Virus record (IMG/VR): IMGVR_UViG_2526164617_000010
Origin: a virus
Taxonomy: Duplodnaviria > Heunggongvirae > Uroviricota > Caudoviricetes
Direction: 5' to 3' (one strand)
DNA: 8,888 bases
Every line of letters starts with the position of its first letter. Position 1 is the stretch's first letter. The notes under the pieces are model-generated. The model was not told the origin of the DNA. It searched no databases and saw nothing but the letters and a program-made list of their open reading frames with translations. Below are positions 1,345 through 8,888 of the stretch, piece after piece. Made by a program: the position numbers and the translations under genes.

Positions 1345-1589
1345 CTGAAAAATAATTCTTTAAAATACCTGACATGTAATACAGAAAAAACACAAAACCA
1401 TACCTTAAATAAAAACCTGATTATCAAGCAGATATGCATGGATAAACTACAAGACGAGATATAAACCACCCTGCATTTAAATAAACAATAAACAACATCA
1501 GAAAAATAATTCTGCTCTATGGTTTACATTCAAAAATATCATTTATACTTTTCAGAACATCACCAGCAAGGCATAAACAAGGAAACTAA

Positions 1590-1925
1590 ATGAAGTGGAT
1601 TGTGATTGATACAGTTATCCAGCCATCATGCGGAATATCTTTTTCAGTCATATGGAGTAAAATAAAATTAATAATCTGGTATCAATCGGATGCTTTCTTA
1701 CCTCCTGAAAGTATATTTACACTGACTCACACAGGCATCATGCTCAATAACAAAGTGCTACCTGTAACCATTTACAACGTAGTACCATTCAATAAAACAT
1801 TCTGGAATTCAATCAAAAATAGCCAGGAATGCCCTACAAATACAGATAACGTATTGAATGAATGCTTTAATAACCGTTGCACTCTGCAAATATGTCCTTA
1901 TGGACTAAAACAACAAAGTCCATAA
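1590..1925 (+). CDS. Hypothetical 111-aa protein in an AT-rich island (no family recognised)
   Basis: ATG is preceded by AAGGAAA with about 6-nt spacing. The ORF ends inside a 12-bp perfect hairpin. Composition is I/N/W-rich with a Cys-rich C-terminus (ECPTN...[16 protein letters not shown]), and 6 of 13 Ile codons are ATA. It could be a chance ORF in AT-rich DNA. Confidence 0.3.
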
Positions 1926-1928
1926 GGA
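1895..1928. repeat. Perfect 12-bp inverted repeat (stem 1895-1906 / 1917-1928, 10-nt loop AAAACAACAA)
   Basis: TCCTTATGGACT ... AGTCCATAAGGA read directly. It overlaps the stop codon of ORF 1590-1925. Confidence 0.85.
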
Positions 1929-1940
1929 GTTTACTCACAT

Positions 1941-2372: not shown

Positions 2373-2726
2373 CTACCCCAGATGAGTAATCCGAAGTTCA
2401 TCCATACCACAGGTCCTGGCTATTCTGTTGTACTCCTGAACAAGAGCAAATAATTCTGAATTAGCAACCATGAACTCATCGCAAACCCTCTGTATAGCAT
2501 CACTATTCAGAATAATAACGTCTCTTCCCGAAAGACGATCAGGAGTACAGAACAAAACTGTCAAACGGCTGAAGGCCTTTGCTCGTGCTGCATTGACTAT
2601 ATCAATACGCTGCCTAAGGATGAAACACCCCGACGCCTCATCAATATTCACTCTACCCACACCATATGAATGATAAATATTTAATGCTGAAAAAACCATT
2701 AGACCGTATAACAAACACTCAATCAA
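2373..2726 (-). CDS. Hypothetical protein, 117 codons from TTG (108 aa from the ATG at 2699); unrecognised cargo ORF downstream of the phage tRNAs
   Basis: Longest ORF in the region and co-directional with Q and the tRNAs. Six of 11 Arg codons are AGA/AGG and 3 of 11 Ile codons are ATA, matching the adjacent tRNA specificities. No convincing Shine-Dalgarno before either start. No family recognised. Confidence 0.35.
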   Translation of the reverse strand: MIECLLYGLMVFSALNIYHSYGVGRVNIDEASGCFILRQRIDIVNAARAKAFSRLTVLFCTPDRLSGRDVIILNSDAIQRVCDEFMVANSELFALVQEYNRIARTCGMDELRITHLG

Positions 2727-3013: not shown

Positions 3014-3089
3014 TGGTGGCCCTTGCTGGATTTGAACCAGCGACCTGGCGATTATGAGTCGCTCGCTCTCACCACTGAGCTAAAGGGCC
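3014..3089 (-). tRNA. tRNA with anticodon CAU, most like tRNA-Ile2 (lysidine type, reads AUA); elongator tRNA-Met not excluded
   Basis: GGCCCTTTAGCTCAGTGGTGAGAGCGAGCGACTCATAATCGCCAGGTCGCTGGTTCAAATCCAGCAAGGGCCACCA. Acceptor GGCCCTT/AAGGGCC, T-loop TTCAAAT, anticodon loop CTCATAA. Closely resembles the E. coli ileX/ileY sequence as I recall it. 76 nt with encoded CCA. Confidence 0.85.
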
Positions 3090-3191: not shown

Positions 3192-4046
3192 TTATGACGA
3201 ATTTACCACAGATTCCGGAAAAATCAACCTAGTTACCTTTTTTAACTGCCGCTCAGCCCATGCTTCTTCAATATCAAACCGGGTCACCAGCGCATCATAG
3301 AATTTCTTAACTGTTTTTTCCCATGACGCGCGTGTTATCTGGTTTGTCACCTCGCATATAGCATTAAATGCCTCCGTTGATGGTAGTCTTTCATAGCCAC
3401 GACCACCACAACGCTGGCAGTCTCTGATAACAGGCATACCACGTTTTACCGACTCTTCACGATGAATGGCGACACCACGCCCACGGCAATCCTTACAGGC
3501 GGTGGAAACCTCACCCTTTCCGCCACACTCCGGACAGGCAACTTTTACCACCTCCCTGACTTTTTTCCATTCTTCCCAGTAAGACGGATACACACCTTTC
3601 GTACACTTTGCCCATACCGGCGGCTTACCATCCGGATACTGGACCTTGTTTGTAAAAACTACGCTTTCAATAAATTTTTCCCCATAGCAACAAGGGCACT
3701 GCTTTTTACTCGCTGCGCTGCGGGCATAATCCTCAAAAGCGTACGAAGCCATAATGCGCATCACTACCGGTTTTATTTCTGCCGGAAGTTTTCTCAACGC
3801 CGCCACACGATCGCACCGACTGAGTGCATAATCTGCCAGTAATTCTGTTGCCCGCGCCCTGTCATTCATACTGATGCCCATTTTCCCCAGGAACGCAGAA
3901 AACCCCATCTCAGCCCGATTCTGTGTCATGCCCTGCGCGGCCATCACATCAGTGATACTCAGCGCATCTTTTGACGTTGAGGCCGATGCATCGGTCAGGC
4001 AAGGGGATTTTGGGGAGTAGTATTTCGGTAAATCTTCCAGTTTCAT
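3192..4046 (-). CDS. Q: Late-gene antitermination protein Q (long, zinc-binding Q family of phage-82/Stx-phage type)
   Basis: 284 aa. N-terminus MKLEDLPKYYSPKSP...DVMAAQGM and three CxxCxGxG motifs (CPECGGKG, CKDCRGRG, CQRCGGRG). The start overlaps the rusA stop (ATGA). Followed by a candidate pR'/tR' and phage tRNAs, as in lambdoid late regions. Confidence 0.8.
   Translation of the reverse strand: MKLEDLPKYYSPKSPCLTDASASTSKDALSITDVMAAQGMTQNRAEMGFSAFLGKMGISMNDRARATELLADYALSRCDRVAALRKLPAEIKPVVMRIMASYAFEDYARSAASKKQCPCCYGEKFIESVVFTNKVQYPDGKPPVWAKCTKGVYPSYWEEWKKVREVVKVACPECGGKGEVSTACKDCRGRGVAIHREESVKRGMPVIRDCQRCGGRGYERLPSTEAFNAICEVTNQITRASWEKTVKKFYDALVTRFDIEEAWAERQLKKVTRLIFPESVVNSS
3200..3227 (-). 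promoter_or_regulatory. Candidate sigma70 late promoter (pR'-like) overlapping the 3' end of Q
   Basis: The minus strand reads TTGATT (3227-3222), a 16-bp spacer, then TAAATT (3205-3200). The predicted start is about 40-65 nt upstream of the candidate tR' hairpin. This is motif-level evidence only. Confidence 0.3.
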
Positions 4047-4417
4047 TTTTTGACCTGCTCTTCATGCATTATGGGGTAAATCTTCACCCCCAGACGTCCA
4101 CCAGATACTGGCTGACCACGAACGATATTGATTTCATCAAACTGCTCATCGTCCATTAACACTCCCGCATGTGTCAGTGCATCCAGTGGTGCTTTCAGGA
4201 TATTGTCCAGGTCACGACGGCGCTTATCCGGTGGCTCTGCAATAATCTTTATCGCCAGTCTTCCGGACAGGCTTAATTTCAGTCGCTGCTGACGGACAAT
4301 AAGCGCCACATCCCGGCGATAACGCTCACCGGCTTTTGATACAAAATATGTGTTGTCACGACGTCGCCAGTAAGTATTCACCGTCGGCGGATAAGGTAAA
4401 ATAAACTCATGGCGCAT
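4043..4417 (-). CDS. rusA: Holliday-junction resolvase RusA (crossover junction endodeoxyribonuclease)
   Basis: 124 aa; the PDKRRRDLDN motif and overall sequence closely parallel E. coli RusA. Start overlaps the upstream gene's stop (TGATG). Confidence 0.9.
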   Translation of the reverse strand: MRHEFILPYPPTVNTYWRRRDNTYFVSKAGERYRRDVALIVRQQRLKLSLSGRLAIKIIAEPPDKRRRDLDNILKAPLDALTHAGVLMDDEQFDEINIVRGQPVSGGRLGVKIYPIMHEEQVKK

Positions 4418-4674: not shown

Positions 4675-4789
4675 AAGAAACGCTCCATCTTACTGCTGTC
4701 AGTTCGTTTATTACTGTATCTGCGCGGATTGCCGGGCTTCATGGGAGTGGAAAGCACCCGTGCACTTTCCTGGTCCACAGGCAGAAAAT

Positions 4790-4794
4790 GTCCG
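4790..4794. repeat. IS2 target-site duplication, left copy (GTCCG)
   Basis: Identical pentamer at 8118-8122 abutting the other IS2 end. IS2 makes 5-bp duplications. Confidence 0.85.
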
Positions 4795-5008
4795 TAGACT
4801 GGCCCCCTGAATCTCCAGACAACCAGTATCACTTAAATAAGTGATAGTCTTAATACTAGTTTTTAGACTAGTCATTGGAGTACAGATGATTGATGTCTTA
4901 GGGCCGGAGAAACGCAGACGGCGTACCACACAGGAAAAGATCGCAATTGTGTCAACGCCACGATGTTTGACCGTTATTTGCCATTTTCATGCCCGCTAAA
5001 TACTTTCG

Positions 5009-6951
<1,943 letters not shown>

Positions 6952-7193
6952 GTTGATGTCCTTTCTGGTGTGAGAACCTTAAGGAAACAACATGGTGTAG
7001 CAGCCAGCCAGTTATTTCTCTGGCGTAAGCAATACCAGGAAGGAAGTCTTACTGCTGTCGCCGCCGGAGAACAGGTTGTTCCTGCCTCTGAACTTGCTGC
7101 CGCCATGAAGCAGATTAAAGAACTCCAGCGCCTGCTCGGCAAGAAAACGATGGAAAATGAACTCCTCAAAGAAGCCGTTGAATATGGACGGGC

Positions 7194-7200
7194 AAAAAAG
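7194..7200 (+). promoter_or_regulatory. IS2 programmed -1 frameshift heptamer (A AAA AAG) at the insC/insD overlap
   Basis: AAAAAAG read in the insC frame (codons AAA AAG at 7195-7200). The insD frame opens at 7200. Confidence 0.7.
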
Positions 7201-8106
7201 TGGATAGCGCACGCGCCCTTATTGCCCGGGGATGGGGAGTAAGCTTAGTCAGCCGTTGTCTCCGGGTGTCGCGTGCGCAGTTGCACGTCATTCTCAGACG
7301 AACCGATGACTGGATGGATGGCCGCCGCAGTCGTCACACTGATGATACGGATGTGCTTCTCCGTATACACCATGTTATCGGAGAGCTGCCCACGTATGGT
7401 TATCGTCGGGTATGGGCGCTGCTTCGCAGACAGGCAGAACTTGATGGTATGCCTGCGATCAATGCCAAACGTGTTTACCGGATCATGCGCCAGAATGCGC
7501 TGTTGCTTGAGCGAAAACCTGCTGTACCGCCATCGAAACGGGCACATACAGGCAGAGTGGCCGTGAAAGAAAGCAATCAGCGATGGTGCTCTGACGGGTT
7601 CGAGTTCTGCTGTGATAACGGAGAGAGACTGCGTGTCACGTTCGCGCTGGACTGCTGTGATCGTGAGGCACTGCACTGGGCGGTGACTACCGGCGGCTTC
7701 AACAGTGAAACAGTACAGGACGTCATGCTGGGAGCGGTGGAACGCCGCTTCGGCAACGATCTTCCGTCGTCTCCAGTGGAGTGGCTGACGGATAATGGTT
7801 CATGCTACCGGGCTAATGAAACACGCCAGTTCGCCCGGATGTTGGGACTTGAACCGAAGAACACGGCGGTGCGGAGTCCGGAGAGTAACGGAATAGCAGA
7901 GAGCTTCGTGAAAACGATAAAGCGTGACTACATCAGTATCATGCCCAAACCAGACGGGTTTAACGGCAGCAAAGAACCTTGCAGAGGCGTTCGAGCATTA
8001 TAACGAATGGCATCCGCATAGTGCGCTGGGTTATCGCTCGCCACGGGAATATCTGCGGCAGCGGGCTTGTAATGGGTTAAGTGATAACAGATGTCTGGAA
8101 ATATAG
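7200..8106 (+). pseudogene. insD: IS2 insD (DDE transposase) carrying a 1-bp insertion frameshift
   Basis: Track ORFs 7200-8003 and 7924-8106 together cover InsD but in two frames. The span is 907 nt instead of 906, and GGGTTTAACGG at 7956-7966 has one more T than the sequence needed to encode ...[15 protein letters not shown]... in one frame. Confidence 0.8.
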
Positions 8107-8117
8107 GGGCAAATCCA

Positions 8118-8122
8118 GTCCG
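8118..8122. repeat. IS2 target-site duplication, right copy (GTCCG)
   Basis: Identical to 4790-4794. Confidence 0.85.
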
Positions 8123-8222
8123 TTATAAAAACGCCGGTAAATCGTTCCCAGAGAACCGTGAGGTAGCCTGAGTTTAACGGACACTCCTTCCTGAAATAGA
8201 ATGGCATCAGAAGGAGCTAATA

Positions 8223-8558
8223 ATGAGCAGAAAAACCCAACGTTACTCTAAAGAGTTCAAAGCCGAAGCTGTCAGAACGGTTCCTGAAAATCAACTTTCG
8301 ATCAGTGAAGGCGCTTCCCGATTATCTCTTCCTGAAGGCACTTTAGGACAATGGGTTACCGCCGCCAGAAAAGGGCTCGGTACTCCTGGTTCCCGCACGG
8401 TGGCTGAACTGGAATCTGAAATTCTGCAACTGCGTAAGGCGTTAAATGAAGCTCGCCTTGAGCGAGATAATATTAAAAAAAGCAACAGCGTATTTTGCAC
8501 AGGAGTCGCTGAAAAATACGCGTTAATCGAACAATGGGCGACAACAATTTCCCATTGA
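8223..8558 (+). CDS. IS600-like transposase OrfA (HTH N-terminus intact; C-terminus appears frame-shifted in this copy)
   Basis: MSRKTQRYSKEFKAEAVRTV...ELESEILQLRKALNEARLERD, then an atypical tail NIKKSNSV...TTISH. The conserved IS3-family ending ILKKATAYFAQESLKNTR is encoded one frame over from 8470. An A7G slippery run lies at 8475-8482. Confidence 0.7.
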   Translation: MSRKTQRYSKEFKAEAVRTVPENQLSISEGASRLSLPEGTLGQWVTAARKGLGTPGSRTVAELESEILQLRKALNEARLERDNIKKSNSVFCTGVAEKYALIEQWATTISH

Positions 8559-8562
8559 AGCG

Positions 8563-8888
8563 ATGTGTCAGGTATTTGGTGTATCCAGGAGCGGTTATTA
8601 CAACTGGGTACAGCATGAACCCTCAGACAGAAAACAAAGTGATGAGTGGCTAAAACTGGAGATTAAGGTGGCACATATCCGCACTCGCGAAACATATGGA
8701 ACCCGGCGGCTCCAGACGGAGCTGGCAGAGAATGGCATCATTGTTGGTCGTGACCGACTGGCACGTCTTCGTAAGGAGCTAAGGCTACGCTGTAAGCAGA
8801 AACGCAAGTTCAGAGCGACTACGAACTCGAACCACAATCTGCCAGTTGCGCCAAATCTGCTGAACCAGACGTTCGCTCCTACAGCACC
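8563..8888 (+). CDS. IS600-like transposase OrfB, N-terminal part (3' end outside the window)
   Basis: Hand translation from the ATG at 8563: MCQVFGVSRSGYYNWVQHEPSDRKQSDEWLKLEIKVAHIRTRETYGTRRLQTELAENGIIVGRDRLARLRKELRLRCKQKRKFRATTNSNHNLPVAPNLLNQTFAPTA. This is a typical IS3-family OrfB N-terminus. It is missing from the ORF track only because it runs off the window end. Confidence 0.75.
   Translation, partial: MCQVFGVSRSGYYNWVQHEPSDRKQSDEWLKLEIKVAHIRTRETYGTRRLQTELAENGIIVGRDRLARLRKELRLRCKQKRKFRATTNSNHNLPVAPNLLNQTFAPTA

Follow-up and report, generated by a model that had tools for sequence, protein, structure and literature searches.

The plus-strand ORF in an AT-rich island of an IS-riddled prophage remnant is very probably iraL, a known RssB anti-adaptor gene

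The closest described system is the iraL gene of the uropathogenic E. coli strain CFT073. Hryckowian et al. (2014; mBio, PMC4045071) gave this name to the CFT073 ycgW homologue (c1429), which shares 58.9% amino-acid and 67% nucleotide identity with K-12 iraM. IraL stabilizes RpoS (sigma-S) in log phase in both CFT073 and Shigella sonnei: deletion of iraL lowered the log-phase level of sigma-S in either background and halved the sigma-S half-life in CFT073, and CFT073 IraL and RssB co-purified reciprocally (PMC4045071). In two-hybrid assays from the same study, IraL bound the N-terminal domain (NTD) of RssB only, whereas IraM bound both domains. A fragment extending from -100 through the iraL coding sequence (CDS) was sufficient to raise sigma-S in K-12 (PMC4045071).

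The K-12 paralogue IraM (b1160) is encoded next to the e14 prophage and, according to its structure paper (PMC10844676), is induced under Mg2+ starvation. In the crystal structure of IraM(1-78) bound to RssB (PDB 8TWD), the contact residues of IraM fall into three clusters, and the fold was likened to that of PmrD (PMC10844676). PmrD (PDB 4HN7) is, like IraL, a small beta-barrel-plus-helix protein that binds the receiver domain of a response regulator; unlike IraL, it does not target RssB but protects phospho-PmrA, and it lacks the four-cysteine (Cys4) tail discussed below. A further IraM-family gene lies in the Stx2c prophage of O157:H7 17B6-2 (WP_001303568.1), and our literature search returned no functional study of this paralogue.

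We analyzed a window of 8,888 nt from the IMG/VR virus record IMGVR_UViG_2526164617_000010. The G+C content was 0.323 in 1345-1930 versus 0.493 in the window as a whole, and was 0.286 in the upstream part of this island (1345-1589) and 0.345 in the CDS at 1590-1925. When followed in 200-nt segments, G+C stayed at 0.30-0.36 across 1301-1900, with flanks at about 0.45-0.58. The sole long ORF of the island occupies 1590-1925 on the plus strand, starts with ATG, encodes 111 aa, and is preceded by AAGGAAA (1579-1585), 4 nt ahead of the start codon. Q, rusA, two tRNA genes, and a DUF1737 remnant all occupy the minus strand, so the ORF runs antisense to the late genes. Two strong hairpins are found at 1895-1928 and 1960-1981, and the fold of 1885-2000 scored z = -6.4 versus shuffled sequences. 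An earlier note on this DNA, made from the sequence alone, had described the AT-rich island, the 111-codon ORF preceded by AAGGAAA, and the hairpins at 1895-1981, and each was recovered at the same coordinates.

We are highly confident that ORF 1590-1925 is iraL, a lambdoid-prophage moron with its own promoter whose product blocks RssB and stabilizes sigma-S. Nothing that we observed contradicts this identification. At a threshold of 90% identity, megablast of 1345-1990 found matching loci in 1446 of the 5426 complete E. coli genomes, nearly all of them over the full length. Among the matches listed, the gene was annotated as "anti-adapter protein IraM" at 99.2-99.5% nucleotide identity over 1345-1990 (99.2% for CFT073); four phage records matched the same interval at 98.1%. 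Aligned with the CFT073 locus, the window showed 6 differences in 701 nt, at positions 1342, 1399, 1556, 1587, 1810, and 1820. Two of these fall in the CDS, of which 334 of 336 nt are identical: the change at 1810 yields L74S and that at 1820 is synonymous, leaving 110 of the 111 residues unchanged. Hryckowian et al. assigned genes to iraL at 95% or more nucleotide identity across 100% of the CFT073 coding region, and 334 of 336 bases places the window gene in that class (PMC4045071). The upstream region, for which a conserved iraL type is defined by at least 96% identity to CFT073, differs at three positions in 1345-1589 (1399, 1556, and 1587). At least 999 contigs carry the exact 111-aa protein, which is catalogued as IraM [Shigella sonnei] or as MULTISPECIES [Shigella].

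The earlier note had assigned no function and had suggested homology and structure searches with the 111-aa protein; both kinds of search gave matches, and the ORF turned out to encode an experimentally characterized RssB anti-adaptor. The protein scored 162 bits against the NCBIfam model NF007393 (IraM; cut-off 121), with residues 1-110 covering model positions 1-113 of 114, and matched IraM chain A of PDB 8TWD with an E value of 6.3e-31. Searching 5.8 billion proteins by word index yielded 20 clusters, and all those with a named source belonged to Escherichia, either E. coli or E. albertii, from which we conclude that the IraL/IraM family is narrow. The gene iraL has been known since 2014, and our analysis adds no new biology of the gene itself. 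It does establish the identity of the window gene, along with the conservation of its frame, promoter, fold, NTD-contact residues, and prophage context.

Built from an alignment of 16 sequences, an AlphaFold2 (AF2) model gave a six-stranded barrel with a helix at residues 69-76, at pLDDT 72-87 for residues 1-80. In Foldseek, this model superposed on 8twd_A with a TM score of 0.90 (rmsd 1.3 Å, 64% identity), and on PmrD 4hn7 with a TM score of 0.75 (rmsd 2.1 Å, 13% identity). All five cluster-I residues, which face the RssB NTD in IraM (I4, I6, W22, K26, and I42), are identical in the window protein. In contrast, the clusters that contact the C-terminal domain (CTD) and the linker differ from IraM at four positions (T13S, L75I, H63N, and I64V). 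Retained NTD contacts and altered CTD/linker clusters fit the NTD-only binding of IraL in two-hybrid assays. Overall, IraL and K-12 IraM share their fold, the RssB NTD-contact residues, and four C-terminal cysteines. IraL carries a terminal four-residue extension, QQSP; the sequences of IraM and the Stx-phage paralogue stop at PYG(L/R)K.

Previous work with the CFT073 protein or an S. sonnei mutant established RssB binding, the changes in sigma-S abundance and half-life, and the transcript start; in the window protein, the NTD-contact residues are conserved. In the most probable reading, iraL alone would be transcribed from a sigma-70-type promoter with TATACT at 1544-1549 and a start near 1557, opposite to the Q-dependent late operon. 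The product, predicted to be a PmrD-like beta-barrel with one helix (residues 1-80) followed by a Cys-rich tail, would bind the N-terminal receiver domain of RssB and thereby sequester or block the adaptor. Blocked RssB could then not pass sigma-S to the ClpXP protease, and the stabilized sigma-S would keep the general stress regulon partly on in unstressed, exponentially growing cells.

The window matches the CFT073 locus in its promoter, transcript start sequence, Shine-Dalgarno sequence, downstream hairpins, and slot between Q/tRNAs and the lysis genes. The CFT073 5'-RACE end reported in PMC4045071, ACATCACCAGCAAGG..., matches 1557-1571 exactly, which sets the start at A1557. The earlier note had expected a plus-strand transcript starting near 1560-1590; the transcript is borne out by the CFT073 RACE product, and its start maps slightly further upstream, at 1557. 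By this homology, the 5' untranslated region (UTR) is 33 nt long (1557-1589), includes the AAGGAAA motif, and showed no significant structure (z = +1.2). The -10 hexamer TATACT (1544-1549) is identical in CFT073 and lies 7 nt upstream of the start. At -1 (1556) the window has A in place of the CFT073 G, and at 1587 it has T in place of C. The best -35 candidate, TTTACA (1523-1528), is separated from the -10 by a 15-nt spacer, so its assignment is tentative; the short spacer also explains why a consensus promoter scan that required 16-18 nt did not report the iraL promoter. PMC4045071 marks the -10 and -35 elements solely in a figure.

The sequence GGTTTA is present at 1521-1526. This hexamer, read by eye, equals a single half-site of the consensus PhoP box; as a lone half-site, it was rejected as evidence of PhoP control.

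A chance open frame within an AT-rich non-coding spacer might have looked similar, given the base composition, the odd amino-acid composition, and a Pfam scan of the 111-aa protein that returned only a spurious match to Nairovirus NSm at E <= 0.1, and the earlier note had accordingly allowed that the ORF might be spurious. However, open frames of 111 codons or more appeared in just 0.54% of 5000 composition-matched, first-order Markov simulations of the 586-nt island, with a stop probability of 0.074 per codon. The frame is also conserved, with dN/dS of 0.10-0.28 across paralogues and dS up to about 2. By the Nei-Gojobori method, dN/dS was 0.146 (dS 1.77) against K-12 iraM, 0.117 (dS 1.21) against the Stx2c-prophage paralogue, and 0.277 (dS 0.19) against a variant at 88% protein identity, and the substitutions in these three comparisons were mainly at third positions. 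Together with the curated family model passed, the solved paralogue structure matched, and the deletion, complementation, and pull-down evidence in PMC4045071, these values leave a chance frame with a negligible probability; conservation pattern and published genetics have already refuted it. That the gene is IraM proper, induced through PhoP on Mg2+ starvation, instead of the constitutive IraL is very unlikely: the PGAP and NCBIfam labels do read IraM and GGTTTA does match a PhoP half-site, but the position of the second half-site (1532-1537, AAAAAT) does not match, and the protein is 61-62% identical to K-12 IraM (about 70% at the DNA level) versus 99% to CFT073 IraL. The upstream regions of the window gene and K-12 iraM align only at scattered columns, and the K-12 context of e14 and icdC contrasts with a lambdoid late region in the window. 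Because the upstream regions are unrelated and the contexts differ, the database label does not justify calling the gene IraM proper; neither the iraM-type upstream region nor the chromosomal context that mark IraM sensu stricto was found here, and PMC4045071 separates iraL and iraM matches into non-overlapping classes. We give similarly little credence to a PmrD-like connector acting on a response regulator other than RssB, such as PmrA. The fold resembles PmrD 4hn7, and a precomputed PF11183 (PmrD) label is attached to 19 of 19 label-bearing homologues; yet identity to PmrD is just 13%, hmmscan of the window protein gave no PmrD match at E <= 0.1, and reciprocal co-purification ties IraL to RssB, as does its effect on the sigma-S half-life.

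A different question is whether iraL is a silent, H-NS-repressed xenogeneic gene that has no role under ordinary conditions in a degraded prophage; the earlier note had called AT-rich, foreign-looking DNA of this kind typically H-NS-silenced, a view that our analysis does not support. H-NS is reported to regulate the K-12 paralogue iraM as well as iraD (Battesti 2012), and the 29-35% G+C of the locus would suit such silencing. Furthermore, iraL is regulated and not purely constitutive: IraL was higher in a fur mutant, and iraL mRNA was 1.6 log2 higher at 37°C than at 23°C (PMC12890032). On the other hand, the RACE product and the deletion phenotypes came from CFT073 and S. sonnei growing unstressed in LB at mid-log phase, the native promoter fragment was active in K-12, and the high-affinity H-NS motif was not enriched. 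With up to 2 mismatches allowed, the motif TCGATAAATT had 4 matches in the window versus 8 expected, an uninformative count, and the AT-rich island held a single 2-mismatch match. H-NS has 0 mentions in the iraL paper (PMC4045071). Expression in log phase is hard to square with full silencing and argues against it, and we regard a wholly silent gene as unlikely; a partial, temperature-relieved silencing of iraL is possible. We infer that the source strain expresses the window allele in active form; the points that weigh against this are the L74S and -1 changes and the heavy disruption of the surrounding prophage by IS elements.

Returning to the reading of the ORF as iraL, we compared its surroundings with those of its relatives. 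In CFT073, strain WP2-S18-ESBL-08, and phage record vB_EcoS-640R1, the gene order reads replication genes, DUF968, RusA, Q, tRNAs, DUF3927, iraL (plus strand), DUF1737, holin, lysozyme, and terminase. Conservation in syntenic prophages, a check proposed in the earlier note, was thus observed, with iraL in the same slot in all three. In the window, the antiterminator Q gene lies at 3192-4046 (minus strand; Pfam Antiterm, E 7e-55) and rusA at 4043-4417 (minus strand). Downstream of Q are the minus-strand genes for tRNA-Arg (TCT) at 2837-2913 and a CAT-anticodon tRNA at 3014-3089. The latter was called Met by ARAGORN and is tRNA-Ile by PGAP in relatives; the two make up the ileZ/argO-type set known from lambdoid and Stx phages. 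On the other side of iraL, the 5' part of a nanS-p-type esterase gene (DUF1737) is left at 1201-1344 on the minus strand (Pfam PF08410, E 1.5e-15, residues 8-50), divergent from iraL; in a relative locus, the full-length neighbor is a 635-aa DUF1737-SASA protein. The small ORF (62 aa) that the earlier note had placed at 1156-1344 is indeed on the minus strand and divergent from iraL, but it is a chimera in which only 1201-1344 belongs to the DUF1737/esterase gene. At 1200 an IS3-family element, whose end makes up 1156-1200, truncates the gene, and the E. coli genome matches begin at 1200.

iraL is therefore a moron lying between Q and the lysis genes, where Stx phages carry stx. It has its own transcript start, lies on the strand opposite to Q, the tRNAs, and the lysis genes, deviates in G+C, and sits between conserved phage genes. 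The earlier note's proposal of an independently transcribed moron is supported by the CFT073 transcript start, the AT-richness, the strand opposite to the late operon, and the constant prophage slot. PMC4045071 places iraL only on the "potB genomic island"; what we add is its recognition as a lambdoid-prophage moron in the Shiga-toxin gene slot. The Stx2c-prophage paralogue likewise lies on the plus strand in the slot from Q/tRNA to the nanS-p esterase/lysis genes. It occupies 5001-5324 of the 17B6-2 locus, directly downstream of stx2B on the opposite strand and before a nanS-p-type esterase gene. It differs from iraL in length (107 aa) and sequence (77% nucleotide identity), is under purifying selection (dN/dS 0.12), and its promoter, with a TATAAT -10, is partly alignable with that of iraL.

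Unlike those of CFT073, the flanks of iraL in the window are cut by IS1, IS2-like, IS3-family, and IS21-like elements. On the left, an IS1 copy with insA/insB at 303-1000 interrupts the IS3-family element, which has transposase fragments at 8-292 and about 1061-1158 and ends on the right at 1200. The early side past rusA (4675-8888) has been replaced by IS21-like and IS2 sequences: istB at 5009-5770 and istA at 5782-6951 belong to the IS21-like element, and a TnpA-like frame from about 6970 and TnpB at 7200-8003 to the IS2 copy. The IS21-like element appears to be inserted into the IS2 copy, and a further IS3-family orfA is present at 8223-8558. The IS load of 4675-8888 is typical of Shigella. 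This IS arrangement was absent from the complete E. coli genomes, none of which held more than 72% of the window, and an exact scan of a contig collection for the junction of IS and DUF1737 (1186-1225) gave 0 hits. Because of this absence, and because the exact protein is catalogued in Shigella, we place the window in Shigella; it is almost certainly an IS-riddled prophage remnant of that genus. Q, rusA, the tRNAs, STnc100, and iraL with its promoter are still present in the window. The intact survival of iraL and its promoter in an IS-shredded Shigella prophage remnant is consistent with selection for the gene.

Beyond gene identity, three features seem worth flagging: the IraM-family paralogue beside stx2 in O157:H7, a family-unique L74S in the Shigella allele, and an invariant Cys4 tail. 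Residue 74 (codon 1809-1811) is Ser in the Shigella allele and Leu or Ile in all 14 other aligned family members. It lies in the single alpha-helix and adjoins cluster-II residue 75, an RssB CTD contact in IraM. If the S. sonnei strain of the 2014 study carries the S74 allele, its deletion phenotype implies that this allele is active.

The tail spans codons 81-105 (1830-1904). C81, C92, C97, and C102, as well as P82, I101, P103, and G105, are invariant in 15-16 IraM/IraL members, down to 53-54% identity, and every aligned family member carries the motif CP-x9-10-C-x4-C-x3-ICP-x-G. In the AF2 model, pLDDT is below 50 in the tail, so that residues 81-111 are unreliable and clustering of the cysteines is not readable from it. 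The crystallized IraM(1-78) is without the tail, which PMC10844676 calls less conserved and flexible; that paper mentions neither cysteine nor zinc, and our literature search found no studies of the four tail cysteines. The Cys4 tail could be a metal-binding or redox-sensitive module controlling the stability or activity of IraL/IraM; if so, the switch that governs RpoS degradation would respond directly to a chemical signal.

At the 3' end of iraL, a perfect 12-bp hairpin (1895-1928, plus strand; arms 1895-1906 and 1917-1928) covers the last codons and the stop. Its 3' arm encodes S110, P111, and the stop, and its loop carries Q108-Q109; the QQSP extension may be a by-product of the RNA/DNA hairpin rather than a selected peptide. 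Since the terminator scan found no plus-strand T-run after it, this hairpin is not a canonical intrinsic terminator, and the scan found no such plus-strand terminator after iraL. The second hairpin belongs to the minus strand, where 1960-1981 is the terminator (a 9-bp G+C-rich hairpin and T-run) of an STnc100-family prophage sRNA gene at 1951-2140. This gene matched Rfam RF02076 at 132.4 bits, against a gathering score of 47, over positions 1-206 of 206; the Rfam scan of 1300-2800 at E <= 0.1 gave no match within the AT-rich island. STnc100 is convergent with iraL, the two 3' ends lying about 26 nt apart, and is the immediate convergent neighbor in place of the 117-codon ORF that the earlier note had cast in that role. 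The latter ORF (2373-2726, minus strand, TTG start) had no Pfam or NCBIfam match, and in CFT073 and WP2-S18-ESBL-08, the two relatives compared, PGAP annotates no gene for it between DUF3927 and tRNA-Arg. It is doubtful whether it encodes a protein.

iraL and STnc100 were contiguous in 1443 of about 1446 iraL-bearing E. coli genomes; STnc100-like sequence was present in 2860 genomes, in up to 12 copies. STnc100 is treated in a 2026 preprint on prophage sRNAs that leaves iraL unmentioned. A weaker suggestion than that of the metal/redox module is that the fixed convergent pairing of iraL with STnc100, along with Q-dependent late transcription reading through in antisense, could link RpoS stabilization to the state of the prophage. 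Taken jointly, the two ideas are speculative, and we consider them improbable at present. In relatives, PGAP annotates a partial "hypothetical protein" pseudogene opposite the STnc100 gene.
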